From assembly GCF_000026545.1 (NCBI RefSeq), contig NC_011601.1: 64,000 nt of DNA. One strand, written 5' to 3'. Source of the stretch: Escherichia coli O127:H6 str. E2348/69. GTDB taxonomy: Bacteria > Pseudomonadota > Gammaproteobacteria > Enterobacterales > Enterobacteriaceae. Position numbers and translations under genes: made by a program. Positions 12,399 to 44,282 of the stretch are shown piece by piece. Every line of letters starts with the position of its first letter. Position 1 is the stretch's first letter. Below the pieces are notes generated by a model, which was not told where the DNA came from, did not search any database, and saw only the letters and a list, made by a program, of their open reading frames with translations.

Positions 12399-13913
12399 TC
12401 ACGTCTGACTTACCTTTTTCTCCCCCCCCAGCAAACTCCCCAACATCCCACGCACAATCTGATTCGTCACCTGGCGGGCGGCGCTTTTCGCCATTGTTTG
12501 CACCACACCATCTTTCTTCCCGCCGCGTGGTCCGGTAGTGCCAAACAAAATATCCTTCAATCCACCAAGAATACCGTCATCCACCGCCACCTCTTTCCCT
12601 TTCGCGGGAGGATTATTTTGCTGCTCGGTACTGGCCTGAAAGCCTTTTTGCAACATCTCATAGGCGGATTCCCGGTCCACGTCATCCTCGTACTTGCCAT
12701 ACACCGGAGAGTGATTAATCAAGCCATTACGCTCATCTTCCGTCACCGGCCCCATTCGTGAACAGGGGGCAATCACCATCGCCCGTTCCACCACTGAAGG
12801 GCTTCCTTTCGCATCGAGAAACGAGATTAACGCCTCGCCGGTCCCCAGTTCCTGGATTGCCTTTTCGGTATCAAACGCCGGATTGGCCCGCATGGTTTGC
12901 GCCGCAGCTTTTACTGCTTTCTGATCTTTGGGCGTAAAAGCCCGCAAAGCGTGTTGAACGCGATTACCGAGCTGGCCGAGCACATTATCCGGAATATCAG
13001 ACGGGTTTTGCGAAACGAACCAGACGCCCACGCCTTTTGAGCGAATAAGCCTTATCACCTGCTCAATCTTATCCAGCAGTACCTGCGGTGCGTCATTAAA
13101 CAGCAGATGCGCCTCGTCGAAGAAAAACACAAGTTTTGGTTTCTCCAGATCGCCCGCTTCTGGCAATTGTTCATACAACTCTGAAAGCATCCACAGCAGG
13201 CTGGCGGCGTACAGTTTAGGCATCTGATAAAGCTTTTCGGCGCTGAGGATATTGATAACGCCTTTACCGTTAGCATCGTTGCGCATCCAGTCTTTGATAT
13301 CCAGCATCGGCTCGCCAAAGAAATGCGCCGCACCTTGTTGCTCCAGCGACAGTAATCCGCGCTGGATGGCACCAACCGATGCGCTACTGATATTTCCGTA
13401 CTGATTCTGGAAGGATTTGGCGTTATCGCCGATGTACTGGGTAATCGCCCGCAGATCTTTAAAGTCGAGCAGTAACAGCCCCTGATCGTCAGCAATACGG
13501 AAGATGATATCCAGCACGCCAGATTGCACATCGTTGAGATTCAGCAGTCGCGCCAGCAACAGCGGGCCCAGATCCGAAACCGTCGCCCGCACCGGATGGC
13601 CTTTCTCGCCAAAGATATCCCACACCACCACCGGATTGGCATGCGGTTGCCAGTCGTTGACGCCGATATTTTTCAGTCTTGCGAGCAGTTTTTCCGACGC
13701 CTTTCCTGACTGCGCGATGCCGGTCAGATCGCCTTTCACATCGGCCATAAACACCGGAACACCGATTTCCGACAATGACTCTGCCAGTTTTTGCAGCGTG
13801 ACAGTTTTACCCGTCCCCGTTGCGCCAGTAATCAGCCCGTGACGGTTAGCCATTCCCGGCAGTAAAAACAGTTCTGTGTCCGGCGTGCGGGCAATTAACA
13901 GGGGTTCGCTCAT
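12399..13913 (-). CDS. yjgR: Putative ATPase of the HerA/FtsK-like DUF853 family
   Basis: Walker A GATGTGKT and Walker B-like [10 protein letters not shown] motifs; start chosen at the ATG at 13911-13913 preceded by GGAGG; about 504 aa. Confidence 0.8.
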
Positions 13914-14042: not shown

Positions 14043-15062
14043 TCAGAAATCGGCTTTCAGAACCACGCGATAACGCGCCTTACCGTCGCGCACATGCTGG
14101 ATGGCGTCGTTAATTTTCGACATCGGGAACAGTTCGGTAGTCGGCGCAACCTTGCTGCGGGCGGCAAAGCGCATCAGCTTACGCAACTCATAAGGTGTAC
14201 CGGTAGCAGAGCCAGAGACACTGCGATCGCCCGCAATCAGCGTAAAGGCCGGAACCGGCAACGGCGTGAGAACCGCACCGACGGTGTGGAAATTACCGCC
14301 ATACGTCAGCGCCTCAAAATAAGGCTGCCAGTCGAGGCTGACGTTGACGGTGTTGATAATGAGATCAAACTGCCCCGCCAGTGCTTTCAGTGCCTGTGGA
14401 TCGCGGCTATTCACCACTTTATCGGCACCCATCACCAGCACTTCCTGCTCTTTCGCCGGATTAGAACTAAAGGCTGTCACCTCGCATCCCATTGCGTGCA
14501 GAAGTTTTATAGCTATATGCCCCAGCCCGCCAATACCAATTACCCCAACGCGGCTGGTGGCAGTGATATGGTGCATCAACAGCGGTTTAAAGACCGTGAT
14601 ACCGCCGCACAACAGCGGTCCGGCAGATTCAATGTCGATATTTTCTGGCAGTGGAATCACCCATTGCCAGTCCGCACGCAACTTCTCGGCAAAGCCACCG
14701 CGATTCATAATCGTCGGCACCGCACCTTGCTCGCAGTTGATCTGATTACCGCTAATACAGGCATCGCAATGCCCGCAGCTGCGTGCCGTCCAGCCAATCC
14801 CGACACGCTGACCGACCTGCAAACCTTTATCCTGCGCGGCACTCCCGAGCGCCACTACGCGACCAATCACCTCATGCCCGGCAACCAGTGGATATTGTGA
14901 AAATCCCCATTCGTTATCGATCATTGACAGATCGGAATGACAGATCCCGCAGTAATCCACCTGCACTTCAACATCTTGTGGCTTCAGTTCACCGGGATCG
15001 TACTCATAAACTTCCAGTTCGCCGCCCGCTTCTTTTGCGGCATAGCTTTTTATCATCGACAT
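14043..15062 (-). CDS. ahr: NADPH-dependent aldehyde reductase, Zn-dependent alcohol dehydrogenase family
   Basis: 339-aa product beginning [26 protein letters not shown] with GHEVIG zinc-ADH motif and GIGGLGH NAD(P) motif; matches Ahr/YjgB. Confidence 0.85.
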
Positions 15063-15200
15063 TTTTTGGTCCTTCTCTGGTGTGGTCTGGGAAGTGTAGA
15101 GCATGGCAGGGCGGGGTGCCTGGAGTGTGACAAAGGTTACACATCGCGGTATGCAATGCTGAAAATTTCAGCACTTAGCGAGGTGCGAGCAAGCTGGCGC

Positions 15201-15228
15201 TTGCATGGTGGCGTGCGACAGGTATAAT
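15201..15228 (+). promoter_or_regulatory. Putative sigma-70 promoter of leuX (TTGCAT-16 bp-TATAAT)
   Basis: Near-consensus -35/-10 hexamers about 30 bp upstream of the mature tRNA 5' end. Confidence 0.6.
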
Positions 15229-15257
15229 CCACAACGTTTTCCGCATACCTCTTCAGT

Positions 15258-15342
15258 GCCGAAGTGGCGAAATCGGTAGACGCAGTTGATTCAAAATCAA
15301 CCGTAGAAATACGTGCCGGTTCGAGTCCGGCCTTCGGCACCA
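15258..15342 (+). tRNA. leuX: tRNA-Leu (anticodon CAA)
   Basis: 85-nt sequence gccgaagtggcgaaatcggtagacgcagttgattCAAaatcaaccgtagaaatacgtgccggttcgagtccggccttcggcacca; long variable arm, CCA end encoded. Confidence 0.92.
15312..15342 (+). repeat. attL core: 31-bp 3' end of leuX, repeated exactly at 30373-30403
   Basis: cgtgccggttcgagtccggccttcggcacca occurs at both positions in direct orientation. Confidence 0.85.
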
Positions 15343-15859
15343 AGTCACTAAATTTCTTACAATACAATAAGTTAGGAAATAAAATCTATCTCTTTTGCCT
15401 GTAAGAAATGCTCTGTTATGTCCCTTGAAAAAGCCGCTGTGGTTGATAGTGGTAATTGGGATGTTAACTCATAGCGGCGTGTAGTTCCAAGCGTCAAACA
15501 CGTACTGACTCAACTTGAAAGCTATGACGTAGCCACCGTCTCTAAACAATCCCAAAAACTTTTAGTGAAGCGCATTTTAGCCCGATGCCCCCGTTCTGTC
15601 GCCGTCGCGAGACGCCGCAGGGGATAAACAGGTTTATGGTGGTCACGGTACTTGCAGACCATATGCAAGCTCTGCCAGCGGTTCGGCCTCGCTCCCCTTG
15701 GGTACATGGTCATCCTGATAAGCCTCACTAACTGACATAACTGTGATGTAGTCGCCAGAGGCTCCGCTTGTTGTCTTACCACCAACGGGGCTTATGACTT
15801 TTATTGTGTCAGTAAACGGCATATTATCAGTGATAGTTCAAACAGTTAGTAGGTAGAAA

Positions 15860-16408
15860 ATGAAGACCAAAAGAAAGAGCTTTGATCAATTCTTATGGCA
15901 TGATATTGATTTTGAAGATGATGCTGCAAAACAGGAAGAATACCTTGAATCTGCATTGCCACTTATTGGCCAGATTGTTATGTATTTCAATGCGCTAGAG
16001 AAAGAATTAGATAAAGTCATTTATGAAGGATTCAGCGATCGGTCAGATCAGTTAGGAATAATAATTGTGCATAACATGAATTATGCAGCAAAAGTCGAGT
16101 TATTTAGACGTCACTCCGAATTATTCCATTTGGGTGTTGGGCAGCATGTTGATATGTTTGAAGGTCTTATAAAGGATCTCAAGGAATGTGGACGGTTACG
16201 AAACATTACTGTACATGCTGACTGGGATAGCACTGATGTCGAAGGATATACATATTTAGGCATCAAAATAACTAACAATGGAATATCTCAGGAATATATC
16301 CAGTTTGACCTGGGGTCGTTGGAAAGTATCCTTCAATTGATTTTCAGTACGAGATATAAGTTGAGTGATTATTCAGACTTAAGGGGAGATATACTGGCTT
16401 CACATTAG
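15860..16408 (+). CDS. Hypothetical protein with HEPN-like R-N-x3-H motif (possible RNase/abortive-infection-type toxin)
   Basis: 182-aa ORF in AT-rich DNA; RLRNITVH motif at about residues 112-119 fits the HEPN Rx4-6H signature. Motif-level evidence only. Confidence 0.4.
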   Translation: MKTKRKSFDQFLWHDIDFEDDAAKQEEYLESALPLIGQIVMYFNALEKELDKVIYEGFSDRSDQLGIIIVHNMNYAAKVELFRRHSELFHLGVGQHVDMFEGLIKDLKECGRLRNITVHADWDSTDVEGYTYLGIKITNNGISQEYIQFDLGSLESILQLIFSTRYKLSDYSDLRGDILASH

Positions 16409-16477
16409 TGCCATTTTTTTACTAAATAGCTAACAAATACTATCGGTAAAAGACAACATCGCAATGGTAAAGCTGCC

Positions 16478-16948
16478 GTGAAGAAGACATTGATTGATTG
16501 GATCATAGAGACTGATAACTGGACAGGAATCGCAGCGTGGGCGGGTTTCGGTTTGTCAGTATTTCAGTTAGTAAAATCAAGAACATCGCTAAGACTTTAC
16601 CTCGGGTGTGATCAGCACGAGGACAGAATATACGTTTCGAACATAAGCGCACATGATGTAACGTTGAGTGTAGCCGGTGTCGTAACAGCCAGTGGACGCC
16701 TTAGAATGCTTTCCGACGAGTATTCGGATGAGAACATGATCACACCGATGTTACCAAGAAGGTTGAAAGCACGAGACGAAATGGTCTTGAACGTGCCCTT
16801 CATAAATAAGGCTCATCACAACAAAGTGCATCATCGTGGCGGGGTGTATATCAAAACATCTGACGGCAAGATGTTCAGTGATGTTTGTTGGATTAGACGC
16901 CAATGGTGGTGGTTACTGTCTGTAATACTGCGAGACACAAAGCGATAG
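16478..16948 (+). CDS. Hypothetical small membrane protein
   Basis: 156-aa ORF with an N-terminal hydrophobic helix (GIAAWAGFGLSVFQLV) and a Trp-rich hydrophobic C-terminus; AT-rich. Confidence 0.4.
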   Translation: MKKTLIDWIIETDNWTGIAAWAGFGLSVFQLVKSRTSLRLYLGCDQHEDRIYVSNISAHDVTLSVAGVVTASGRLRMLSDEYSDENMITPMLPRRLKARDEMVLNVPFINKAHHNKVHHRGGVYIKTSDGKMFSDVCWIRRQWWWLLSVILRDTKR

Positions 16949-17159
16949 GACAAGCGAGTCGCAGCTCATATGAGTGCCAACTGACATACGGCTCAGTTGG
17001 AATACTAGGATCGCGACTACGTGTTGTCTGCGAAAAACTGGGACTCAATAGATGGGTGTAGATTTAATTGATACGATCCTGTACGCGAATATTTCTCAGC
17101 ATAAATATCATCCCAGCGTCGGATTATGGTATTCAGAATGTGTGTGATGGTCTCTATCT

Positions 17160-17921
17160 TTATTCAGACCTTTTCTTCTTATCTTCCCATTCTTTTAAAG
17201 TGCTCTGATATCTTTCTTCATTTATTCTTTTTTCCTCGGTTCTGTCGCTTGAGTTGTAATTATCTGTTTTAATTTTCTTGGCTCCTTGGGATATCGGCCT
17301 CCAGTCCTCTCTAATTTTTTTCACTTGCTCGGCTATTTGTGTCATTGGACTCCTTGCTCCTAAATAGCTAACCCCCTCGAAAGAAGCCATATCATAAGAA
17401 TATTCATTGAGTTCTCTTTCTGTAGATCCGGGCTGTTTTGACCAACTGACACTAATAGAATAAATTTGATCCTTAATTTGCTCATACTTGCAGAGATTGC
17501 TGTTGAGAGAGTGTCCGTTTTTTAATACGCTGACCTTGCTAAATGGTACGCCTCTATTTTTTCTATGTTCTGCATTAACGAGAGGGGGATCAAATTCGAC
17601 CGCTATATCATAGGCTGGTGCATTTCCAGTATTAGCGATATTAATGTCAAAATAAAAAGCAGCCCAAGAGTTTGGTTCAAGAGTCACAACAACATGTGGT
17701 TGAACTGATGCGTCAACCATCCTTTTCGTTTCGTTTGCTAATAGCCTTGTTACTCTCCACAAGAAAAACGTAGCAACTGCTGTTAGCAGTGCTGCAAAAG
17801 CAGAGATCATTGTGCTTATAGTATCTATATGCTGTGTGATGAATTCGATCATTCTTCTCCCTCGAAATATAGTGCTTATTGTTATCAAAGGTAAGATAGC
17901 TCCCGGCTTGAAAAATTGCAC
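17160..17921 (-). CDS. Hypothetical membrane-anchored protein (probable true start at internal Met near 17852)
   Basis: 253-aa ORF; N-terminal TM helix (ISAFAALLTAVATFFLW) then a soluble domain and a charged K/E-rich C-terminus. Confidence 0.4.
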   Translation of the reverse strand: MQFFKPGAILPLITISTIFRGRRMIEFITQHIDTISTMISAFAALLTAVATFFLWRVTRLLANETKRMVDASVQPHVVVTLEPNSWAAFYFDINIANTGNAPAYDIAVEFDPPLVNAEHRKNRGVPFSKVSVLKNGHSLNSNLCKYEQIKDQIYSISVSWSKQPGSTERELNEYSYDMASFEGVSYLGARSPMTQIAEQVKKIREDWRPISQGAKKIKTDNYNSSDRTEEKRINEERYQSTLKEWEDKKKRSE

Positions 17922-18314
17922 GCTTATGGTTGCCCCTCCCTCGACGGTTAAGGCTTCAACTTCCCCCGTGCGCCTCTCCCAGCCGAAGGCTGGGCGGGCT
18001 GTATATCGATTTGCCTTCCTCTGTGGCGTTTATGACCCTGTTTCGCGTTCTTACCGTGAGGCTGTGGGTTAGGGTTACTCTTCTCTTTAAACGCTAAATC
18101 ACTCCTGAATCTCCACTGTTAAAGCACTTTGCGTTGATGCTTGGCGCTTCTCTTGGCTGTCGTTATTGTTTTGGCTTTGGTGTCATCAATCGTTCGATTC
18201 TTGCTACCTGTCTGAGTGATTACTATCTGGTATCATCAATTTAGGGTTTGACTAAATGCCACCACCAATGCAATGATGCTACCGTTTTGTGATACCAGAC
18301 GGGTGAGGTGAACC

Positions 18315-18884
18315 ATGAGGACTTTTATCTACTGCCGCGTTTCAACACGCGAGCAGGATACGCAGAATCAGGTGCTGGCTATTGAGCGTGCCGGGTATAA
18401 GGTGCCGGAGAGCAGGGTAATCAGCGAGGACATTTCCGGCAGCGTTCAGGCTATGCAGCGCCCTAAGTTCCGGGCGATGGTTGAGCACAAGCTGGAAGCG
18501 GGAGATCAGCTTGTCGTGCTGAAACTGGACAGGCTGGGGCGTGACAACATCGATGTGCAGCAGACCATCGACATGCTGTTAGAACGCGGCGTGAAGGTGG
18601 TGTCTCTTGACCTGCCAGCGCGTGATCTGACTTCATCTGAGGGCAAGCTAATCCGCCAGATGTTTGGAGCCTTTGCTGAGTTCGAGCGAAACCGTATCCG
18701 TGAGAGGACGCTGGACGGGCTGGAGAAGGCGAAAGCCAATGGCGTTAAGCTGGGACGCAAGGAAGCCACCGACACCACTCAAAAGGTGCAGGAGCTGCGG
18801 AGTGAGGGGCTGTCTCAATCGAAGGTAGCGAAGCATCTCGGCGTTAGCGTGAGCACCGTTAAACGTCACTGGAACAAGGGTTAG
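18315..18884 (+). CDS. Serine recombinase (resolvase/invertase family)
   Basis: 189 aa; catalytic-serine motif YCRVSTREQ at the N-terminus, LDRLGR motif, C-terminal HTH (SQSKVAKHLGVSVSTVKR). Confidence 0.85.
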   Translation: MRTFIYCRVSTREQDTQNQVLAIERAGYKVPESRVISEDISGSVQAMQRPKFRAMVEHKLEAGDQLVVLKLDRLGRDNIDVQQTIDMLLERGVKVVSLDLPARDLTSSEGKLIRQMFGAFAEFERNRIRERTLDGLEKAKANGVKLGRKEATDTTQKVQELRSEGLSQSKVAKHLGVSVSTVKRHWNKG

Positions 18885-19559
18885 GGGTGATGACCTACAA
18901 CCAAATGAGGTGCCAGCACTGGCCGTTACTGGGCTGTGGGAGATGGATGACCTACAGCTTTTGTATTTATTTCAGAGTGTTATGTTATGCGAAATCTCGT
19001 AATGCTATGATTTATAGTGTATTTTCGTATTACTTGCGGCTCTTGATGCGAAGAGATGGCGGGGCTTTAGCCGTGCCAGACGATGAGCATCAAGATCAGA
19101 TTGTGAATGTGATTCATCACTGAACAATTCGAGGGATGGGGCAGGGGAAGGGATCAAAGGCTGCGTTGTCCAATCACTAAGCTAGATTTGAAGCTGGTCA
19201 ACACGTTAGTAGTATCTTTAAAGTCGCATTTTAAATACATGTACAAAAAAGGGTTCTTCCCCTACATCCCCTTCTCCTAATCAGTGTTATCGCTTCACGC
19301 TCACCACTGGCTGCGCTTCTCGCTGTGCTCCAGCCCACTCGATCGCCTTTGGCTCATTCCCGGTCTTCGCCTGCTGTGATGCTCGGCCACTCTACGCAAC
19401 CGTGCTTGCCGTGGCATGCAACGCGGCGGGGATGTGTAGTGGAACGGTACTTTTTATCTATATTATTAATTTAATCAATCACATACTGTTATCGGTAGGT
19501 ATTCTTCAAAACATCTTCATTCATTTCTGTATCGTTCAATCATCTTTCTTGTTCGTTTC

Positions 19560-19700
19560 CTTTCAGGTCTTAGCCGTTGGTCATTGGTCTTACTGCCCGC
19601 TGTGCTACTGCCAGCTATGGCACGCCGTCACGGTCTACTGTCTGTCACCTGTCCTACTGCGTTCACTGTCTGCCGTCTGTCATCCTGTCGGATTCCATCC
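19560..19700. repeat. Pyrimidine-rich cluster of short iteron-like repeats (YTACTGYC / CTGTC) next to an AT-rich tract; candidate replication origin
   Basis: tcttactgcc, gctactgcc, tctactgtc, cctactgcg and cactgtctgcc within about 100 bp; AT-rich stretch at 19440-19560 immediately upstream. Confidence 0.3.
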
Positions 19701-20149
19701 GTTGACGTTCCGCGCTCGCTTGTTTCGGCTGCGCCGCGCTCGCTCTGCGTATCTAGCGATACTATATCACTATAGACACTTTCATAATTATATAATGATT
19801 ACAGTAACTTATGTTTTCTGTTTTAAAAGCTACTAATAAGGAGATATAGAGCATTACTTACCCGCTTTTGACCGACAAAAATCGCGTTGTTAAGTATTGC
19901 CAGCCCAGGCTCAATAAGGCTTAGCGAGGTGGTGGCTAAAAAATGAGCTAATGAAGGTATCTACTAAGGAGAAAGAATAACTCCCGAAGCGCGACAAACT
20001 CTCCGATTTTGAAAGTGACTATTAAGGCAGATAAAGACACTGACACTGTTGCTGACATGAAAACTTCTAAAAGGGCAGAGAGTCTGCCGAACCCGTACCG
20101 CTGACCCAACCTGAGCTAATACCTACCCCTATTTTCTGGAGATTTCACC

Positions 20150-21994
20150 ATGCCAACAAACCTACGCCGCCTGCTTGCGCAGGCTGCCGACGCTGACCCG
20201 CTCAATACTGCGGACGCAGATGTACAGCAAATGATCGCTGACGGGATTGTTATTCGACGTTCCAAGATATGCCCTGTAAAGCGTAAACCCGTTAAGGCGG
20301 CATACAACACAAAGACCGAAGAGTTTTATTACAATGCAGATGGCTCCGCGATGACCTTGCGGGAGTGGCGAACGCTGCACGGTGTTCAACCGAAGAAACA
20401 AAAACAGCGCTCTGACACTGGGTTGCGGCAAGTCATCCAGCCCGGCGACGCGATTCACTGCCGACGCGCTGAGATTGAGCAATGGCTTAATAAGAAGCCC
20501 GCTCGTTATGTTGACCCGCTGCCGCCAGATTTTCCCGGTGTTCGCGTAGACGATGCCGCATTGAAACCGCGCGAGCACGCCGTGCCGGAAGCGACAACCG
20601 GACAGAATGCTTTTCTCAAAGCCTGCCGCGAGTTCCTGATTTGCGATGAGAAGACCATGCGCCGTATCAGTCGGGGCATGAACCAAATGGAAGCTATGCG
20701 CAACGCAGATTTCAAACGCTACGGAGACTCAGGGGAGTTTCGTCAATTGTGGTGTGGAGAGTCGAAGCCTACCGAAGATAGATTTAATAGTTCTAATCAT
20801 CATTGTGACCCGAACGGCTTGGCTGCTTCGCCGTCTGTGCCGCCACTGAATACTGCACCGTATGAGTTCCGCCCGCTGGCTCGCTGTGACCGAAACGCAC
20901 GCGTTAGCCTGCTGCCACCTGATGGGCTGGAGTGGAGGCCGGGGCAGTTGTCTGTTGCTGATGCGATCTTTTCCCGTGGCAGTGATGTGCTTGCCGTACT
21001 GCCGACCGGGTATGGCAAAAGCGCCGCCTTCACTTATCCATTGATTTATGAGTCCCGCGCTGGCATTGGCCTGTCTGTAATCGTGGTTCCTACTAATACC
21101 CTTAAGCGTCAGATTCTCCGCCAGTTGCGGGAGGCTGGCATTCACGCTGTGGCCTTTGGCGATAAGCTACCGAGGCACCGCAACGCACAACAACTGGCGG
21201 GACTAGCAGCCGGGGCGTTCCGGGTTGCTGTTGTTTCGCCTGAACATCTGGTTCCGTCGAGTCAGGTTCTCGCGGCGCTGATGGCTTATGGCGTTGATCG
21301 TTTTATTATCGATGAGGCACACACGGTCAAAGACTGGGATTTCCGCCCAGCTTACGACGCAATGCAGCACACACTACAGAATGCTTTTCCCTCGGCTCAG
21401 CGCTGCGTGTTTACGGCTACTCTACTACGAGAAAATGAGCGCGGTTTAATGGAGGCGCTGGGATGCCGTGGCGATTACGTTACATTCCGTGCTGATGTTG
21501 CTCGCGAGAATATCCAGTTGATTCCGGTCAGGCAGTGCCGCCAGCGATACCGCGCGGCTGTTGGTCTGGTCGAGGCTCTGCCAGAGGAAGAGAAGACGCT
21601 CATTCTAGTCAATGACCTTAAGACGTTGCGGGCGTACCTGAAACTCTTCGGCGACCGGGCGCGCCCATATCACTCGAAGACGATGCACCTGAGCAACGAG
21701 GAACGCCACGCAAACGCTGAGTGGTTTGCCTCTGCGCCGGGCGCGATTCTGATTGCTACTAAAGCCTTCGGGCTGGGTGCTGATGTTCCTGATATCCGTA
21801 ACGTTGTCGTGACATACGTTCCCGATGACTTGCCTGATCTCGTTCAGATGATTGGACGAGCCGGGCGCGATGGGGAACCTGCCCGCGCTTTTCTGCTGTG
21901 GTCATCGCTGGCGCTGGATGTTGCTCCTGATGAGCTTGCTTACTTCTACCGCCCTGAAAACTGTAACTGGCAGTACATCGCTAAATACCTCTGA
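20150..21994 (+). CDS. RecQ-family superfamily-2 DNA helicase with a ~270-aa N-terminal domain of unknown function
   Basis: Helicase motifs LPTGYGKS (Walker A), IIDEAHTV (DEAH box) and GRAGRDG (RecQ-type motif VI). Confidence 0.7.
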   Translation: MPTNLRRLLAQAADADPLNTADADVQQMIADGIVIRRSKICPVKRKPVKAAYNTKTEEFYYNADGSAMTLREWRTLHGVQPKKQKQRSDTGLRQVIQPGDAIHCRRAEIEQWLNKKPARYVDPLPPDFPGVRVDDAALKPREHAVPEATTGQNAFLKACREFLICDEKTMRRISRGMNQMEAMRNADFKRYGDSGEFRQLWCGESKPTEDRFNSSNHHCDPNGLAASPSVPPLNTAPYEFRPLARCDRNARVSLLPPDGLEWRPGQLSVADAIFSRGSDVLAVLPTGYGKSAAFTYPLIYESRAGIGLSVIVVPTNTLKRQILRQLREAGIHAVAFGDKLPRHRNAQQLAGLAAGAFRVAVVSPEHLVPSSQVLAALMAYGVDRFIIDEAHTVKDWDFRPAYDAMQHTLQNAFPSAQRCVFTATLLRENERGLMEALGCRGDYVTFRADVARENIQLIPVRQCRQRYRAAVGLVEALPEEEKTLILVNDLKTLRAYLKLFGDRARPYHSKTMHLSNEERHANAEWFASAPGAILIATKAFGLGADVPDIRNVVVTYVPDDLPDLVQMIGRAGRDGEPARAFLLWSSLALDVAPDELAYFYRPENCNWQYIAKYL

Positions 21995-22031
21995 GTCGAA
22001 AGGCTCTCCCTGATTCTCTGGAGTTAATCAT

Positions 22032-22469
22032 ATGCCTGTTACCGAACATGCGCAGCGTCGTGCTGCGCGTGCGGATGCGCTCATCACCGCACAACTAGCC
22101 TTTGCCCTGAATGGGTACAACTGGGATGAACTGGCCGAACCTCATCGCAAGACCCTTAATCGTGAGGCCATCATTCGCGAGGTATCTACACCGCTGGAGC
22201 GATATTGCCTGCTGAATGATTGCGAGCCGTGGGAGTGTCTGGCCGCTGTACTGAACCGCATGAAAAGGCCGGATGGCTCGCGTCGCTGGAAAGCCGTCCG
22301 GTTGTCCGACCGGGTTTTCAATGGCCGGGTGCATCCAGTGCGCAAGACTCCTGATGAAGTTTACGCCGCCATTGCCCGCCGCTTGTTCCTGCCGAAGCCT
22401 GTGCATCAAGAAGTGATACAGCACATCCGTGCGCTTGGCTTGTTACCAGTTGGAGATAACCACCAATGA
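22032..22469 (+). CDS. Hypothetical protein
   Basis: 145-aa ORF, co-directional in a tightly packed operon. Confidence 0.4.
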   Translation: MPVTEHAQRRAARADALITAQLAFALNGYNWDELAEPHRKTLNREAIIREVSTPLERYCLLNDCEPWECLAAVLNRMKRPDGSRRWKAVRLSDRVFNGRVHPVRKTPDEVYAAIARRLFLPKPVHQEVIQHIRALGLLPVGDNHQ

Positions 22470-22675
22470 CGAAATCTGAATTTGAAAATGAAACATGGCG
22501 AATGAAGGGCTTGCTTCTTGGGGCGCTGATTCGCCGCCTTGAGGAAGATAAGGCTGGCGAGTCGCGCATGGTCGCAGCGGAGTTATCCAGTGCGGTCAAC
22601 TTCCTTAAGGCCAACGCCGTAGAAGCGCCGGACACATCATTCAACAACGTGTTCCCGGAGGATGACGAACAATGA
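22466..22675 (+). CDS. Hypothetical small protein
   Basis: 69-aa ORF with ATGA overlap with the upstream gene. Confidence 0.3.
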   Translation: MTKSEFENETWRMKGLLLGALIRRLEEDKAGESRMVAAELSSAVNFLKANAVEAPDTSFNNVFPEDDEQ

Positions 22676-22848
22676 CCCCTGAACAATTCAGACAATGGTT
22701 CGCCACGCTGCCACCGAACTATCAGAGCGCCGCACGCACCATGTACGACAACGCCCGCAAGTCGGGCATACATACCGCGTCAAGCCTTGCGCTGATTCAC
22801 ACGTTGGTTACTGACCAGATCAAATTTGATTCGGAGTTTAATTTATGA
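22672..22848 (+). CDS. Hypothetical small protein (58 aa)
   Basis: Not in the ORF track (below 60 aa); start and stop both overlap neighbours in ATGA fashion, suggesting translational coupling. Confidence 0.3.
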   Translation: MTPEQFRQWFATLPPNYQSAARTMYDNARKSGIHTASSLALIHTLVTDQIKFDSEFNL

Positions 22849-23408
22849 CTTTGAGTATTACCGATATCCAGCGCATTAACGCGCTGGCTCATAAGCACCT
22901 AAAGAACAATGAAGAGATTGCAGCGGAGACAGGTCATACCCTGACCGATATTGACGCTGTAATCCGTGGCGTCTATGTCGATGACTTGGCCGAACATTGG
23001 AAAGACGATGCTGATATTACTCTGGCGGAGTACAACGCCATCCGCAGCCGCTATAAGCCCGGCAAGTTGCACCGCGATACAGAGTTTATGATTGCCCGCG
23101 ATATGCTGATTCGCCCTGAGACTGTGCTGGCTATCGCCCATTCCCGCTTTAGCAACGTCCACACGCACCCAGTGCCGAAAGCCGTCAAAGCAAAGCCGGA
23201 GAAAGCGAAAGTAGTGCGCAAGTTAGTGCTTACTGATTTAGATGAAATCCACAAGTTAGAGCGCTTCGGTTGGCCTGCTGCGGAGATCGCCGGGAAGCTG
23301 GGCGTCCCTGTTGAGGTCGTCGCGCATGTGCAACGCTGCCTGAGAAATCGTTGGTCGTACCCGGATACTCTGGAGTCTGTTAACTCCAAATTCAGCGAGG
23401 CTGAATGA
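22845..23408 (+). CDS. Hypothetical protein with a possible C-terminal HTH
   Basis: 187-aa ORF; HTH-like segment GWPAAEIAGKLGVPVEVVAHVQRC. Confidence 0.4.
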   Translation: MTLSITDIQRINALAHKHLKNNEEIAAETGHTLTDIDAVIRGVYVDDLAEHWKDDADITLAEYNAIRSRYKPGKLHRDTEFMIARDMLIRPETVLAIAHSRFSNVHTHPVPKAVKAKPEKAKVVRKLVLTDLDEIHKLERFGWPAAEIAGKLGVPVEVVAHVQRCLRNRWSYPDTLESVNSKFSEAE

Positions 23409-23641
23409 TGGCAGAGAACGAACCGCTGCACCCCGCCGTTAACCCTGATCTCTACGTGAACCTTGACGAACAACGCGAAGGATACGCTCCGATTGAATCA
23501 CAGGGTTGGGATGTGCTGACGCAGAACCTGACCGGGAAAGGTCGAACTGACCCCAGCCAAACACTTAACCAGAATCCGAAACAACGCCCGCACGGCTCCG
23601 TTGGTGAGCGTCGTTGGCTTCGTAAACGTGGATTACTTTAA
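23405..23641 (+). CDS. Hypothetical small protein
   Basis: 78-aa ORF, overlapping start with the upstream gene. Confidence 0.3.
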   Translation: MMAENEPLHPAVNPDLYVNLDEQREGYAPIESQGWDVLTQNLTGKGRTDPSQTLNQNPKQRPHGSVGERRWLRKRGLL

Positions 23642-23653
23642 CGAGGAATTACC

Positions 23654-23893
23654 ATGAGCAAAACTATCGTATTGCTGCCGCCCCGCAAGAATACAGACTG
23701 GGCTGCACAATTAAAGCTGATTTCTGAATCGCTTGAGGTGAGTCAGGCAGACCTCGCCCACGCCTATCAGGTTGATCGTCGGGATATGGGTAAAGCGTAT
23801 CACGGTGTGCGCAAACTGCCGGAGCGTTGTGTGCCTGTTCATATGCTGTTGTTAGCGCAGGTACACGACTTTAGAGCATTATCAGGAGAATAA
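23654..23893 (+). CDS. Hypothetical small protein (possible HTH regulator)
   Basis: 79-aa ORF with an RBS-like aggaa upstream. Confidence 0.35.
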   Translation: MSKTIVLLPPRKNTDWAAQLKLISESLEVSQADLAHAYQVDRRDMGKAYHGVRKLPERCVPVHMLLLAQVHDFRALSGE

Positions 23894-23896
23894 TTT

Positions 23897-24577
23897 ATGT
23901 CTGACCAGAATGTTAATCCGTACCTTTCCGGTGCTGATGCTGCATCGCAGCAATCGCCATACATGGCTGCACCTGTTGGCGCTGACAATGGCGCATCCCG
24001 CTTTAGCTCTGTGCCTGCTGATGCTGATTTCCTCCGTACCCAGCCCGTTAACGGTAATGATGGCGGCCAATGGAATAATGGCAGTATCGCGAATCAGCAG
24101 GATCAGAACGCTGACAGCGCCGGGGCGCAGGTGGGCGATACTATCTCCCTGATGGATGGAACAGCTATTGAGTACACCGCCGAGCTGCAAGGATTGATGG
24201 GGCAGTTTCACCAGTCTGTCGAAAGCCAGCTAGGGCAGGGGACAGTTGACGCTATGTTGCAGTACGCTGGCACGCTCGACGCCGGGACGCAATCGACCCT
24301 TGAACGGATGGTTATGTCTGGCGACCCTGCGCAGATGCAGCGGGCGGTTCAGTATCTGCAAGAGCGTATGGCTGGCGGTTCCATTACCGGTTACGTCCCG
24401 AACGGCCAGACTGCCGCGCAACCTGTCGGAATGTCACATGCTGAGTTTATAGCAGCGTATGACCAGCTTTCGCAGTGGGCGCAGCAATCAGGGTATGGCC
24501 CCGGCCATCGCCAGTACGACGAACAATACCGTGCTCTGGTTGCGCAGCGCTCCGCTGGCAAACGTGCTGGTCGCTAA
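23897..24577 (+). CDS. Hypothetical acidic Q/A/G-rich protein (scaffolding-protein-like composition)
   Basis: 226-aa low-complexity protein immediately upstream of the capsid-like gene; compositional resemblance only. Confidence 0.35.
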   Translation: MSDQNVNPYLSGADAASQQSPYMAAPVGADNGASRFSSVPADADFLRTQPVNGNDGGQWNNGSIANQQDQNADSAGAQVGDTISLMDGTAIEYTAELQGLMGQFHQSVESQLGQGTVDAMLQYAGTLDAGTQSTLERMVMSGDPAQMQRAVQYLQERMAGGSITGYVPNGQTAAQPVGMSHAEFIAAYDQLSQWAQQSGYGPGHRQYDEQYRALVAQRSAGKRAGR

Positions 24578-24716
24578 CGCCCAACGGTGGAATGCGCCCT
24601 GCAAGACTGAGTGCGCACCAACCCGGTACTACCACACCAATCTAAGCGCATGAGTCCCCGCAAGCCGCATTCTGCGCGGCATCTGAAAGCCTGTTTTTAA
24701 TTAACCGAGGTTCGTA

Positions 24717-25130
24717 ATGAGTACCTGTAATTTCCATGCCGTGGTGCGTGTCGCTGACGTGCGCCCGGATTTCGCCTTGCCGCTGGGTAGATGCGACCAC
24801 ATTTACCCTGAGCGTGTGCAGCACGTTTTCAATCCAGACGAAGCGGTTTATATCGTTGCCCGGTCTGCCACATCCGGCACCCGCACATCTGGCGTTAGCC
24901 GTGGGCTTTCCCCTGTGCTGCCGCCGAAGATGGCCGAGCGGATGCGCGAACGTGAACGGCACGAGAAAAACCGAGTCAGACCCCGCAAGGTGATCACTGA
25001 GGCGATACGCGCTGACATTATCGATCGCTCTGCAAAAGGTCAGAAGAATCGTTACATTGCAAGCAAGGTTGGTGTGTCTGAAACCTCTGTGCGGAAGGTG
25101 TTGAACATGGCGCGTATGAGTGCGCACTAG
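24717..25130 (+). CDS. Hypothetical DNA-binding protein (C-terminal HTH)
   Basis: 137-aa ORF; HTH-like NRYIASKVGVSETSVRKVLN. Confidence 0.4.
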   Translation: MSTCNFHAVVRVADVRPDFALPLGRCDHIYPERVQHVFNPDEAVYIVARSATSGTRTSGVSRGLSPVLPPKMAERMRERERHEKNRVRPRKVITEAIRADIIDRSAKGQKNRYIASKVGVSETSVRKVLNMARMSAH

Positions 25131-25349
25131 TGCAAGGTAATACGTTCACCTTACTTCACGCGCACTAACCCCTGAGAACCGTGCCAGCTCTGGCCTCAAA
25201 ACGCCCATTTCGGGGCACCTCATTCCTCTTAATCGATACCGTTCTGAATCCTGCCTCGGCGGGAGGATTACGCACGCCCGCGCCATGACGATGGCCGGGC
25301 CTATCTCGTCAGTGAATCCGCTGGCACAACCTACGTAGGAGTTTTACAT

Positions 25350-26345
25350 ATGGCCGATAACATTTACTCGCCTGACCAGTTCCGCCCACATTATGGCGGG
25401 GTGGAATCTGACAATGATATTCACATCGAGGCTTATGACCGGGATGTCCAGACCCGTTTAGAGTCCAAATCCGTATTTCTGGCCGAGGGGCTGTCTACAT
25501 ACAGGCCGCTGAAAGCCAGCAACCAATATCGTGTTGATCGCCTGAGTGGTGATCTGGAGGTGAAGGGCAGAACCGCAGGGCAATCGCTGGAGCCTACCGC
25601 TGTTAAGTCGGATAAGCTGATTATCTCTGTGGATACGCTGAGTTATATCCGCATCCCGATTGACTATCAGGATGACTGGACAGCACCCACCTTTCGCTCA
25701 GAGCTGAGCCGCAATATCGGTACTGCTCACGCTAAATTCTACGACGAAGCGCACACCATCCAGCTAATCAAAGCGACTGACTTTGTACCGCCGCCGACGT
25801 TGCAACCAACGTTTAACCCGCTGACGGATAATGTTGTCTCGCTCGACCTGACAGCGGGGAGCGAAGAGGACGCCGCAAACGAATTGTCTCACGCCGTAAA
25901 AGCGGCTGCTAATCGCTTTCTCACTGAGAAAGATATTCCGGTGGCCGAGCTGGTACTGCTTATCGACCCGGCTTGGTTCAGCATCCTGATGGAACATAAG
26001 AAGCTGATGAACATCCGTTACAGCCGGGATAGTGGCAACGATTACGCATGGCGTCGAGTTGGCTATGTCGCTTGGGTACGAGTCATTGAGCTGAACAGTT
26101 ACCCGCAGGGAGCCATTACCGCGCATGAACTGGGCGCTGATTATAATGTGACCGCAGGGGAAGCGCTGACACGGGCGACGCTGTTCCGGCCTGCGTCTGT
26201 ACTTGTGACAGTCGAAGCGCAGAGCGTCATCAATCGCCAGTGGGATGAGGAACGCGAAATGACAATGGTGATGGACTCATATCGCCTGTTCAATGTTGGG
26301 CTGCGCCGCCCGGACTGCGTTATCAATTTCCGACAAGCTGCATAA
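25350..26345 (+). CDS. Hypothetical protein, possibly a phage-type structural (capsid-like) protein
   Basis: 331-aa ORF with strong RBS (aggag); size and position after a scaffold-like gene suggest a structural role; no motif-level proof. Confidence 0.35.
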   Translation: MADNIYSPDQFRPHYGGVESDNDIHIEAYDRDVQTRLESKSVFLAEGLSTYRPLKASNQYRVDRLSGDLEVKGRTAGQSLEPTAVKSDKLIISVDTLSYIRIPIDYQDDWTAPTFRSELSRNIGTAHAKFYDEAHTIQLIKATDFVPPPTLQPTFNPLTDNVVSLDLTAGSEEDAANELSHAVKAAANRFLTEKDIPVAELVLLIDPAWFSILMEHKKLMNIRYSRDSGNDYAWRRVGYVAWVRVIELNSYPQGAITAHELGADYNVTAGEALTRATLFRPASVLVTVEAQSVINRQWDEEREMTMVMDSYRLFNVGLRRPDCVINFRQAA

Positions 26346-26361
26346 CTGGAGGGGCTGAGTC

Positions 26362-26871
26362 ATGGTTAATGATGCTTACGCCCCTGAGCTGTTGCGATCC
26401 CTTTTCCTGTATGACCCGGTGACAGGTCGCCTGCACCATAAAGCTAGCCGATGCCGGGTTACGGCTGGCTCCTATGCTGACTCCACCCGGCGAGCTGATG
26501 GCTATCGTCAAGTTGCCCTGCGACTGGATGGCAAGCAGTACCAGCTAAAAGCCCATCGCGTAGCGTGGATTCTTGCGCATGGTGCTATTCCCCACGGTAT
26601 GCAGATCGATCACATCAACGGTACCCGTGACGATAACCGCTTATGCAATCTGCGATTGGTTACGCAGCGGGAAAACGACCAGAACCGACGCAAGGCAAGG
26701 GGGTATAGCTGGAATAAGGGCTGTAGCAAATGGGAGGCTTACATACGCGTTGGTGGTGTACTCCGTCACCTTGGCTTATTCACATCCGAAGCGGCAGCTC
26801 GTGCTGTGTACCTGAAAGCTAAAGCCAGATACCACCCCTCAACGCCTGACGATTTATTGCAGGCTGCCTAA
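26362..26871 (+). CDS. HNH endonuclease (phage-type, with AP2-like region)
   Basis: 169-aa ORF; HNH core IDHINGTRDDNRLCNLRLVTQRENDQN. Confidence 0.7.
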   Translation: MVNDAYAPELLRSLFLYDPVTGRLHHKASRCRVTAGSYADSTRRADGYRQVALRLDGKQYQLKAHRVAWILAHGAIPHGMQIDHINGTRDDNRLCNLRLVTQRENDQNRRKARGYSWNKGCSKWEAYIRVGGVLRHLGLFTSEAAARAVYLKAKARYHPSTPDDLLQAA

Positions 26872-26889
26872 CCCTCGGAGGTTCCATTA

Positions 26890-27315
26890 ATGGCTGATGA
26901 AAAGCCGATTAGGTCGCTGGCAGGTGATGACCCACGCCGCCAGCAGTACGCCGAACTGTTGGCGCAGGCTAGCCGCATGACTATTCCCCGGCTGCATCCG
27001 GGCGATGCTAACAGTGTGATGAGTCAGCTTGCAACGATGCTTGGCGCACCTGTCCCGATAGTCGGTGCTATGACTGAGCACGCCGCTGCATGGCGTGCCT
27101 GTCTGCTTGAGCAAGGACTTGGCGAGCTTCTGGATGGCTTGAGTAAACAGGTGCTGACCATCTTCTTTCTGCTCTGCTGGAGAGACAGCGCCTTGCGATT
27201 GGCTGGTAAGCAAAAGAAACGGCTTACAGCCGCCAGCGAGGGTTTGACCATTGAGCAATACCGGGCAATGCACCCGGCTTACAGAGAGGATAAAGAACAT
27301 GATAACCACGATTAA
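26890..27315 (+). CDS. Hypothetical protein
   Basis: 141-aa ORF in the operon. Confidence 0.35.
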   Translation: MADEKPIRSLAGDDPRRQQYAELLAQASRMTIPRLHPGDANSVMSQLATMLGAPVPIVGAMTEHAAAWRACLLEQGLGELLDGLSKQVLTIFFLLCWRDSALRLAGKQKKRLTAASEGLTIEQYRAMHPAYREDKEHDNHD

Positions 27316-27598
27316 ATTAAGGTGGCGGTACATCGAGACGCCGCCAATGACTGGCGCACTCGCTGACCTGAAACAGTGGGTAATGAATGCCGTAGAGCCT
27401 GAGCTTGAGGCTGAATTTCGTAAGCTGCTGGGGCAGATGCGTCGCAATGGTATCAGTGATGGGCGCGTAAATGCGGTGGCTGATGAGCTTTATGCTCTGG
27501 TATGCCAACGCCAGCGCGAAGAATACGAAGCCTGCAAGCGGGCTGCCTCTGACAATGGAGACTTTGAATCATGGTTACACGGACAGACCAGCTACTAA
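27299..27598 (+). CDS. Hypothetical small protein (start chosen at the ATG with GAGAGGA RBS)
   Basis: Track ORF 27251..27598; internal ATG at 27299 has a good Shine-Dalgarno sequence. Confidence 0.35.
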   Translation: MITTIKLRWRYIETPPMTGALADLKQWVMNAVEPELEAEFRKLLGQMRRNGISDGRVNAVADELYALVCQRQREEYEACKRAASDNGDFESWLHGQTSY

Positions 27599-27996
27599 GA
27601 AAAGCTATGAGGGGCTATCTGGAACACCTTGGCAACATGCCGCTGGCGGAACGGATTACAAATGCTGCTGTATTCGAAGATGTGTATCGCTTTTTGTTGA
27701 ATGGTTCCGGGCGGCTGGAGCTGCGCCGCGCTGACGTGGCTGCCGTCCGTGTCTTCCTTTGGAACTATCAATACCGCCGCTGTGCTGTGACAGGTAAGCC
27801 GCTGCGCCTTGCGTCTGCCGTTCTGGATCACTGCCACCGAACCGGGCGCGTGCGTGCTGTGGTGCATCGTTCTGCTAACGCTGCTGAGGGAGGCCGCTAC
27901 GTTGGGCGGACGTGTGGTGTTAGCGTTACGAATCTAAGGGCTATGATTGGCAGCTATCGCAAGCAATACACTGGTATTGGCATGTTATATCCATAA
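27571..27996 (+). CDS. Endonuclease VII-like (DHCH-type) nuclease
   Basis: 141-aa ORF with CAVTGKPL...LDHCHRTGRVR motif resembling the recombination endonuclease VII family signature. Confidence 0.5.
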   Translation: MVTRTDQLLRKAMRGYLEHLGNMPLAERITNAAVFEDVYRFLLNGSGRLELRRADVAAVRVFLWNYQYRRCAVTGKPLRLASAVLDHCHRTGRVRAVVHRSANAAEGGRYVGRTCGVSVTNLRAMIGSYRKQYTGIGMLYP

Positions 27997-28037
27997 CTGC
28001 GGGGTAATAAACCCCGCCGAAATAGTAGCGTAGCCAC

Positions 28038-28940
28038 TCAAACAGGAATGTTGTAGTAATGACAAATTGCATTAGTTAGTAGAGCTGGTGCAGCAGACGC
28101 TGCAATATTTAGCGTCCCCGCATATGCTTTACCAATCATATTTACAACCCACTTCCCAAGGCTATCACTGAAATTGTCCGGGGTAGTTGGGGCGGGTGAT
28201 TCTTGTATAGCTTGATGAAGGCTCTTAATATCTTCATCATTAGCGCCCCAATCCTTGAGCTGCTTTTCAAGCGAGTTGAAGTCTCCAGCGTTGACAGTAT
28301 TATTTTGTGAAATGTCCCCGTTACCAGAGCCAATAACGCCAGCATTGTTTACGTTGCCATGAATGTTGGTCACGTTATGGACAGTCATTGGCGCTACCTC
28401 TTTTTCTCTTAATGAAAACTGTAACCCTTCGCCTAAAATACCCTTTGACTCTAAGTCTAAAGACCAGTCGAGGATCTTATTCCTAACGGTAGTAATTACA
28501 TGTTCTAGTACACCAGCGCTTATAACCCATACCATCTCAGTCTTTTGTCCGATACTTTGAGCTAATGTATCAGCCATCCAATCCGGGAGAGGTAAAAAAG
28601 GGTTTTCTCCTTTATTGCTCATCTTTTTTATAGATGATATTGATTCTGTAATGTGAAACGTTGATACCATTGCATTTAATTCCGCGTCGTTGAAGTTGAC
28701 CACAAGCGGAACCCAGCTCTGATGTTGGGGACTATATGCTTTTAACTGCGATTGACCTTTCCTGTATTCAGGAACCGTATCAAAGCTGGGATAGCCATTT
28801 AATTCGAGCTGTATCCACTCGGTCAAATCGCTGAGGCCGAGCTTCACTGCAATCATTTTGGCCTTCATGAGTACAGATAAAATGTCGGAGTCGGGATCGC
28901 ACGCTAGTGCTTGAAGTTCAAGAACTGGTGAGTTAGCCAT
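28038..28940 (-). CDS. Hypothetical protein adjacent to the integrase (candidate abortive-infection/defense cargo)
   Basis: 300-aa ORF on the integrase strand, convergent with the main operon; N-terminal region loosely resembles Abi-type proteins, from memory only. Confidence 0.4.
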   Translation of the reverse strand: MANSPVLELQALACDPDSDILSVLMKAKMIAVKLGLSDLTEWIQLELNGYPSFDTVPEYRKGQSQLKAYSPQHQSWVPLVVNFNDAELNAMVSTFHITESISSIKKMSNKGENPFLPLPDWMADTLAQSIGQKTEMVWVISAGVLEHVITTVRNKILDWSLDLESKGILGEGLQFSLREKEVAPMTVHNVTNIHGNVNNAGVIGSGNGDISQNNTVNAGDFNSLEKQLKDWGANDEDIKSLHQAIQESPAPTTPDNFSDSLGKWVVNMIGKAYAGTLNIAASAAPALLTNAICHYYNIPV

Positions 28941-29027
28941 ATCAAGACCTTAGTATTGTTTTGATAAGGTATCTTACCCGCATCGAACCATGCAGTCTAA
29001 GGTTCGCAGGCCAAACTCACCCATGAG

Positions 29028-30239: not shown

Positions 30240-30372
30240 ACAAACCCCGGTTATGTTGTCGGGGCTTTTTCATGGCTAAACAGTCTGTGAAATGTGCCGG
30301 GGTCATGAGCTTTAGTCTAGCTAGTTCAACAAGTTAACGATGATTGTTGAAGCAAGCTAAGTCGCTATAACC

Positions 30373-30403
30373 CGTGCCGGTTCGAGTCCGGCCTTCGGCA
30401 CCA
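30373..30403 (+). repeat. attR core: 31-bp direct repeat of the leuX 3' end
   Basis: Exact copy of 15312-15342. Confidence 0.85.
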
Positions 30404-30583: not shown

Positions 30584-30613
30584 CCTGATCTGACAGCTAT
30601 CTGCCAGATCAGG
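30584..30613 (-). terminator. Hairpin terminator downstream of hsdR
   Basis: Perfect 9-bp stem cctgatctg...cagatcagg with a 12-nt loop, about 15 bp past the hsdR stop. Confidence 0.55.
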
Positions 30614-30627
30614 TTCGGATTAATACA

Positions 30628-44218: not shown

Positions 44219-44282
44219 ATAATTTTCGCGTAATTGAAATGATAAATTGATAGCAGGGCCCCTTTACCGGGGCCCTGAAGCG

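Follow-up and report, generated by a model that had tools for sequence, protein, structure and literature searches.

A small serine recombinase in a leuX island of Escherichia coli E2348/69 and its predicted Tn3/gamma-delta-type res site: a probable resolution system rather than an inversion switch

We analyzed a gene encoding a small serine recombinase in a genomic island carried by Escherichia coli O127:H6 str. E2348/69 (NCBI RefSeq assembly GCF_000026545.1), using a stretch of 64,000 nucleotides of contig NC_011601.1, hereafter the window. Our results make it probable that this recombinase is a resolvase acting on an adjacent recombination site (res) of the Tn3/gamma-delta type, forming a resolution system whose role is most likely to untangle multimers of the island or tandemly inserted islands, and not to flip a DNA switch. 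The preliminary description of the locus, drawn from the sequence alone, had labeled the gene an orphan and had proposed that it either drives inversion of a neighboring segment (phase variation) or is a resolution function of a replicon or transposon remnant. The orphan label does not hold, given the cognate multi-subsite recombination site directly upstream of the gene, and the same identifiable res site upholds the proposal of a resolution function. The features that make up the module, all on the plus strand, are listed below.

18315-18884, plus strand: gene for the small serine recombinase (E-type resolvase), defined by its open reading frame (ORF), domains, catalytic motifs and ratio of nonsynonymous to synonymous polymorphism (pN/pS)
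18179-18208, plus strand: predicted res site I, GGTGTCATCAATCG-TT-CGATTCTTGCTACC, an imperfect dyad of 30 bp, proposed from repeats, conservation and chimeras
18229-18263, plus strand: predicted res site II, a 35-bp dyad, GGTATCATCAAT...CTAAATGCCACC, holding the -35 box, proposed from repeats and conservation
18272-18296, plus strand: predicted res site III, 25 bp long, in which the half-sites AATGATGCTACC and TTTTGTGATACC form a direct repeat, proposed from repeats and conservation
18248-18277, plus strand: sigma-70-like promoter of the recombinase gene, TTGACT-18 nt-AATGAT, inside res, proposed from sequence match

The predicted res comprises 118 bp (18179-18296) upstream of the recombinase gene, laid out as subsites of 30, 35 and 25 bp that are separated by spacers of 20 and 8 bp, with 52.5 bp between the centers of sites I and II. 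Tn3-type res sites consist of three subsites of approximately 28, 30-34 and 25 bp, with a promoter overlapping box II and the centers of sites I and II lying an integral number of helical turns (about five) apart (PMC12217951), and the upstream 118 bp, as predicted, fit this geometry. The predicted crossover dinucleotide is the TT at 18193-18194, in the center of site I. Half-sites of the GGTRKCA type (consensus GGTRKCAYCAAT) cluster within the 136 bp preceding the ATG, at least six of the GGTRKCA kind being located in the 118 bp of res, with five matches to the consensus falling within 118 bp and the other 34 spread over the rest of the 64 kb, a count that is only illustrative because the pattern was derived from the res copies themselves; the independent support for res comes instead from its conservation across taxa. 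The sole promoter-like match between 17800 and 20300 is TTGACT-18-AATGAT, placed within sites II and III, and its TTGAC is kept at the equivalent position of res in other genera. Given a promoter inside sites II and III, the protein probably represses its own gene.

This arrangement shares with TnpR and the 114-bp res of Tn3/gamma-delta a small serine recombinase with a C-terminal helix-turn-helix (HTH) and a three-subsite res directly upstream, with about 53 bp between the centers of sites I and II, a promoter within res and crossover at the center of site I. It departs from them in that no transposase is annotated in the island, the identity between recombinases is only 37% and the half-sites of site III are direct. 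In addition, the center of the 30-bp site I is TT (TC, CT or AC in relatives), whereas that of Tn3/gamma-delta is AT.

The layout of res recurs well beyond E. coli, preceding homologs of 47-75% identity from five other genera and from plasmids of 4-9 kb. Loci from four genera (Vibrio, Pantoea, Halomonas and Plesiomonas) have it in common while their flanking DNA is unrelated, each showing a GGTATCA-N16-TGATACC dyad of 30 bp, a second dyad, which includes TTGAC, of about 36 bp, and two more TGATACC half-sites. The res of the J-type recombinase, a 47%-identical E. coli paralog of the E2348/69 (E-type) protein, can be aligned with the E-type res over its whole length, and across E. coli, Kluyvera and Trabulsiella the E-type res is near-invariant. 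Homologs with 52-60% identity reside on plasmids of 4.1, 4.3 and 9.0 kb with a matching res upstream, and there the natural role of the system would be multimer resolution. A profile built from 14 res sites and searched with nhmmer over the window and all compared loci gave a single full-length match at each locus, always on the strand of the recombinase gene and just upstream of it; the one match in the window extends from 18176 to 18316. When species-representative genomes were scanned with the E-type right half-site, two of the 63 matches proved to be true res sites (in Kluyvera and Trabulsiella), both native E-type, and no further hybrids were found.

The position of the module is maintained even where the module itself has been replaced. 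In LD26-1 and similar strains, amounting to many E. coli genomes, a non-orthologous module has taken the place of everything between a point about 20 bp left of site I and the recombinase stop codon, and both of its flanks are still approximately 94% identical. The replacement (locus positions 6258-7041, corresponding to about 18160-18884 of the window) encodes a catalytic recombinase of 210 amino acids (aa) with 26% identity to the E2348/69 protein, and has upstream TGTCT-type repeats and a candidate 30-bp TGTCT...AGACA dyad centered on GTATAC. This island position therefore keeps a catalytic small serine recombinase paired with a site of its own, whatever the specificity. The res architecture is conserved and easily recognized across a large, unnamed family of recombinases of approximately 190 aa, found in islands of enterobacteria, Vibrio and Halomonas and on small plasmids, for which the usual annotation is only 'recombinase family protein' or 'invertase'.

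The E2348/69 recombinase itself, annotated in RefSeq as 'recombinase family protein' (WP_001258715), is read from an ATG and has 189 aa, confirming the serine recombinase of that length in the preliminary description. It carries the Pfam Resolvase N-terminal domain (E = 8e-37) and a C-terminal HTH_7 domain (E = 1.5e-7), yields no NCBIfam equivalog above cut-off, and has catalytic motifs that can be aligned with gamma-delta resolvase (Y6, R8 and S10 in YCRVST, plus LDRLGRD). Similarity at this level does not divide the resolvase and invertase readings. A Hin/Gin/Pin-type invertase, flipping the cargo or the 1.27-kb noncoding stretch beside the gene as a phase switch, would have the same size and domain layout, HTH_7 included; the best PHROG for the protein bears the name 'DNA invertase', and an invertase adjoining the tail-fiber genes of a lambdoid phage is 41% identical to it (139 bits), compared with 90 bits for the 37%-identical gamma-delta resolvase. 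We also count in favor of an invertase the ATCAAAAA-like half-sites of the recombinase, which we take to be similar to invertase crossover half-sites. Searches of PDB with HMMER point the other way, placing the gamma-delta (85 bits) and Tn3 resolvases over Gin (64 bits) for this protein and reversing the order, with Gin over both, when the phage invertase is the query. Going by an entry in the reference list of PMC12217951, ISXc5 represents a resolvase subfamily close to the invertases.

The genomic context makes an inversion switch extremely improbable. Site I is the sole pair of inverted half-sites inside the island, with no inverted partner found, and the two other dyads returned by the half-site-pair search of the window are at chance level (1.7 expected). 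The profile search of the window yielded no second res, its only minus-strand matches being the site I palindrome itself, and general inverted-repeat searches gave no inversion partner either. Orientation was assessed by megablast of positions 17900-22000 against 5426 complete E. coli genomes. The approximately 49 genomes with the island (at least 80% coverage) are all collinear, with no opposite-strand pieces, and in the matches of reduced coverage the recombinase gene is replaced, not inverted. With one res and collinear islands, there is therefore no invertible segment. The preliminary description had looked to inverted crossover sites on the flanks and to both orientations among population genomes as signs of an invertase, and to an identifiable res and a single orientation as signs against it; the island has a res, the site I dyad alone and one orientation, so that phase variation can be dropped. 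Compared with the Hin, Gin, Cin and Pin invertases, the system also has accessory sites II and III, which, like its plasmid-borne relatives, suit a resolvase.

The setting of the module in the island bears on whether it could be a leftover of another element. The last 31 nt of the tRNA-Leu(CAA) gene leuX (15258-15342) are repeated exactly at 30373-30403, and an integrase gene lies just inside the second copy; these attachment (att) repeats and the integrase together define a 15-kb island bounded at leuX, with the features that follow.

15312-15342, plus strand: attL core, the 3' end of the leuX tRNA-Leu(CAA) gene, an exact 31-bp repeat
15343-15806: conserved left-end segment
15807-17901, no strand assigned: variable cargo slot of low G+C content, with other genes in related islands
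17902-18178, no strand assigned: conserved noncoding flank left of res, the first 47 bp of which are also found in other leuX islands
18885-20149, no strand assigned: conserved noncoding segment of 1265 bp between recombinase and helicase
20150-21994, plus strand: DEAD/DEAH-box helicase, probable replication protein of the island
25350-26345: major capsid protein gene
29028-30239, minus strand: tyrosine integrase of the island, from annotation, 75% identical to the integrase of a Pantoea island
30373-30403, plus strand: attR core, repeating the 31-bp tRNA 3' end exactly

From attL, the island thus presents its left end, the cargo, the flank, the recombinase, the gap of 1.27 kb, the helicase with many small genes and the capsid, followed by an HNH endonuclease, an endonuclease VII-like protein, AbiTii (minus strand) and the integrase (minus strand). 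With the tyrosine integrase present, the small serine recombinase is indeed the second recombinase of the island, as had been described, and its reported location between the cargo and about 1.2 kb of noncoding DNA agrees with a cargo slot at about 15807-17901 on its left and 1265 gene-free bp on its right. The island family is present, at leuX or at tRNA-Gly, in around 50 complete E. coli genomes; its cargo differs, and the order of recombinase, gap and helicase is constant, which makes the recombinase part of the backbone and not of the cargo. In islands at leuX and tRNA-Gly, the module has an equal backbone position in E. coli, Kluyvera, Trabulsiella and Pantoea.

Among four E-type alleles, the recombinase gene shows pN/pS values of 0.02-0.13 and is under strong purifying selection. 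Relatives of the protein in Citrobacter, Enterobacter and Cronobacter are 96-99% identical, and a large family with 66-75% identity extends over Vibrio, Photobacterium, Halomonas, Pantoea and Plesiomonas. We see very little room for the possibility that the module is the leftover tnpR and res of a decayed Tn3-family transposon, now without a role. The Tn3-like organization of res would suit such an origin, as would the cargo adjoining res in the way that passenger genes do in Tn3-family elements (PMC7157771). Against it stand the fixed backbone position in islands of four genera, the purifying selection and the refilling of the slot by another intact recombinase after replacement; moreover, the annotation of the island includes neither a transposase nor a transposon-end feature, although no search aimed at terminal repeats was made. 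Of the earlier proposal of a resolution function in a replicon or transposon remnant, then, the resolution function is retained on account of the res site, and the transposon remnant is disfavored by the lack of an annotated transposase, the backbone position and the low pN/pS.

With regard to length, the E2348/69 protein is two residues shorter than most of its relatives (191 aa) because a GAG-to-TAG change (18879-18892) introduces an earlier stop, located after the HTH.

Natural crossovers at site I provide a separate line of evidence on what the recombinase does. J-type recombinases are found in more than 400 E. coli genomes, in small islands with the order tRNA, integrase, NIPSNAP, variable genes, res and recombinase. 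Their right half-site and everything rightward of it are uniform in all contexts, and the left half-site varies, being AGCGCCAACAAACG in most J-type loci, GATGTAAGAAATCG in NU14 and, in the JE86-type loci of 86 complete genomes, GGTGTCATCAATCG, which is exactly the left half of the E-type site. To the left of the site I center, JE86 is identical to the E-type island of USMARC at 990 of 1000 positions, with 14 of 14 in the left half-site, and shares nothing alignable with the J-type island of SSGNw2. To the right of the center, it matches USMARC at only 10 of 16 positions and then at about 62% over 200 bp, while its identity with SSGNw2 is 200 of 200 and 998 of 1000. Position 14 of the left half and the site I center delimit the switch of parent. 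As read from these alignments, a switch at that point is the characteristic mark that serine recombinase strand exchange leaves, and so points to the center of site I as the crossover point. A like signature at res has been taken as inter-transposon exchange in Tn3-family elements, where homology breaks at res subsite I and the modules on one side are exchanged (PMC7157771), much as among JE86, USMARC and SSGNw2; here, however, the partners are tRNA-integrated islands and the two res belong to recombinases that are 47% identical.

The two island types also reside together. In SSGNw2, a J-type and an E-type island stand in tandem at leuX, with a second att core ending the J-type island and the left end and cargo of the E-type island following directly. 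The JE86 element has att cores at both bounds and lacks an integrase, as is expected of the product of a deletion between two res, and would represent the remainder of such a deletion in a tandem with the E-type island placed before the J-type. For the NU14 left half-site, the flank was found only with J-type res in E. coli, with no reciprocal partner, and clearly hybrid site I junctions number only two. Outside E. coli, two Vibrio loci contain unrelated cargo, with an identity of only 77% in their chromosomal flanks and in their large serine integrases, and 98% identity between them starts exactly at the outer edge of site I.

In Vibrio, a unit of 2 kb (locus positions 7866-9835) contains res, the recombinase and a 373-aa protein without a Pfam match. 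The unit is 97-98% identical between strains and ends abruptly on both sides in host chromosomal flanks that are 77-93% identical, as if res, recombinase and the 373-aa protein were moving in a single block.

The junctions at site I bear directly on two further explanations of the module. In the first, the protein serves chiefly to repress the island by binding DNA; res is its operator, and recombination is a vestige. Tn3 and gamma-delta resolvases are known repressors, the predicted promoter lies within sites II and III, and each genome has only one res. The catalytic residues are nevertheless kept under purifying selection, the non-orthologous replacement is likewise a catalytic recombinase and the natural junctions at the site I center speak for real strand exchange there, all of which renders this explanation quite improbable.

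The second explanation views res and resolvase as a dedicated device for module exchange, in which tandem integration followed by deletion between two res swaps cargo and backbone, even across res types. It is consistent with the placement of variable cargo between att or integrase and res in five island families, with the existence of tandem arrays and of chimeras that switch parent at the site I center, with the start of the 98%-identical Vibrio module at site I within host flanks that are only 77% identical, and with a reported association of serine recombinases and defense that has no known mechanism (PMC12632615). We nonetheless regard a dedicated device as unlikely. The E-type cargo slot has conserved DNA on both sides, so that ordinary homologous recombination can swap its cargo; the clearly hybrid junctions are only two and all E-type sites were seen in their native form; the family is also present on tiny plasmids that have no cargo to exchange; and in Tn3-family transposons, exchange at res is already known as something that resolvases bring about as a by-product (PMC7157771). 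A reshuffling of defense islands and phage satellites by res and resolvase, in which the integrase stacks islands at one att and the resolvase deletes between res, is a possibility that we advance tentatively. Such a process would leave one island's cargo side joined to a different island's backbone, even where the recombinases are only 47% identical.

The resolution system that we favor would operate as follows. In the integrated, single-copy state, the island has one res and no recombination partner, leaving the recombinase with nothing to recombine. Dimers of the recombinase would bind the three subsites, and two directly repeated res on one molecule would synapse, with deletion of the intervening DNA. 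Pairs of res in direct repeat, the arrangement for which the system would be selective, would be expected where the excised, replicating island forms multimers or where islands lie in tandem at a shared att. The outcome would be the restoration of monomers or the collapse of tandems, together with repression of the recombinase gene by its own product, and the reassortment of island modules at site I would be a by-product.

Several points weigh against this reading. The subsites are predictions made from repeats and conservation, and site III, which is kept in all taxa compared, is atypical in its symmetry, having half-sites that are direct rather than inverted and a spacing that ranges from 11 to 15 bp among taxa. 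The similarity scores are not clearly on the resolvase side (139 bits at 41% for the phage invertase, against 90 bits at 37% for gamma-delta). Circular replication of the island would be indicated only by the helicase gene and the noncoding region. Finally, some relatives of the recombinase occur in minimal islands without evident replication genes, for example those in comM of Halomonas and Vibrio, so that multimer resolution may be only part of the role.

Known systems nonetheless provide close counterparts, and the E2348/69 module is another resolution system of a kind already described; taken alone, it is an ordinary one. In SGI1, a reactivated Res/res system removes island multimers (PMC12217951). 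SGI1 resembles the present island in having a Tn3-like res and resolvase in the backbone of an integrative island, a separate integrase and cargo adjoining res. SGI1 has a replicative circular stage, and such a stage is possible for the island studied here, with its integrase, att repeats, helicase and candidate origin region. SGI1 is, however, mobilized by IncA/C conjugative plasmids and acquired its cargo by res-hunter transposition, whereas the E2348/69 island looks phage-satellite-like, with no transposon involved. In pipolins, small serine recombinases beside large serine integrases in yifB/comM have been proposed to act as resolvases on circular intermediates of replication (PMC11551731), and this layout of a large and a small serine recombinase in comM/yifB is exactly that of the Vibrio and Halomonas relatives. 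According to a 2025 preprint, anti-phage loci are marked by serine recombinases, for a reason that it leaves open (RADS, PMC12632615). Both studies resemble ours in dealing with small serine recombinases in integrative elements with defense cargo, and differ from it in that they define no res site or crossover junctions and, for RADS, in the use of an Enterococcus recombinase as bait.

In the literature that we searched, there was no defined res for this recombinase family, no occurrence of it in a satellite-like island and no hybrid site I junction between islands. If it is true, module exchange would supply a mechanism for the unexplained linkage between small serine recombinases and anti-phage genes, and the site I junctions and tandem islands make the question of why such recombinases stand beside defense cargo experimentally simple.

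The cargo slot of E2348/69 contains three ORFs, at 15860-16408 (plus strand), 16478-16948 (plus strand) and 17160-17852 (minus strand), none of which has a Pfam or PADLOC match; the second, of 156 aa, is unannotated in RefSeq. The equivalent slot in related islands holds AbiJ-NTD4, PDC-M04A or a UvrD and AAA pair. The boundary between cargo and flank is marked by a 47-bp motif, CCCGGCTTGAAAAATTGCACGCTTATGGTTGCCCCTCCCTC..., at 17902-17948, which is also located about 270 bp upstream of J-type recombinases in approximately 95 other E. coli genomes.

The noncoding segment to the right of the recombinase (18885-20149) is 93-95% identical in other islands. It has no annotated gene and no ORF conserved in length or frame across five related islands, a scan of it against Rfam gave no match at E <= 1, and folds of 19240-19460 on both strands were no better than those of shuffled sequences (z = -1.4 and -1.0). 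No cluster of recombinase half-sites was detected within it in either half-site or profile searches. Its recognizable features are AT-rich blocks at 19425-19545 and 19785-19845 and ACTGTCTGYC-like repeats at 19588-19687. With low confidence, we suggest that the segment may be a replication origin or a regulatory region for the helicase operon. Its most variable 160 bp are flanked by an inverted repeat, TTCCCCTACATCCCC and GGGGATGTGTAGTGGAA, at 19258-19272 and 19431-19447, and a terminator-like hairpin is present on the minus strand at 19263-19249.

The island as a whole (15343-30403) resembles a phage satellite in which the major capsid is the sole structural gene. This capsid is 56% identical to that of virulent podophages of about 42 kb (Bonnellvirus, Autographivirales), with a top PDB match at E = 8.6e-78; a comparison with the Bonnellvirus phage Lidtsur yielded only the capsid, plus a weak match for the endonuclease VII. 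In the literature searched, there was no description of such a satellite, nor of this island family. In the noncoding segment, GATACTATATCACTATAGACAC at 19768-19775 contains CACTATAG, the core of promoters of T7/SP6-type phage RNA polymerases, oriented toward the helicase operon. The idea of a helper-phage promoter is unsupported, as CACTATAG is absent from Lidtsur and no noncoding motif is shared with it.

Defense-related genes are also found outside the cargo slot. The AbiTii gene (28038-28940, minus strand) adjoins the integrase and has a 47%-identical counterpart in the Pantoea island (locus positions 14581-15498, minus strand), which is smaller than the E. coli island; AbiTii thus appears to belong to the backbone rather than to the slot cargo. 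Immediately beyond attR, and hence outside the island, the block at 30600-44300 encodes a type I restriction-modification system (hsdR, hsdS and hsdM), DUF4942, McrBC, a phosphorothioate-dependent restriction endonuclease and an HNH endonuclease. In a Plesiomonas island integrated at the transfer-messenger RNA gene (locus positions 5968-12795), the homologous recombinase adjoins a type I restriction-modification operon, which carries a reverse-transcriptase gene (572 aa, RVT_1) between hsdS and hsdR.

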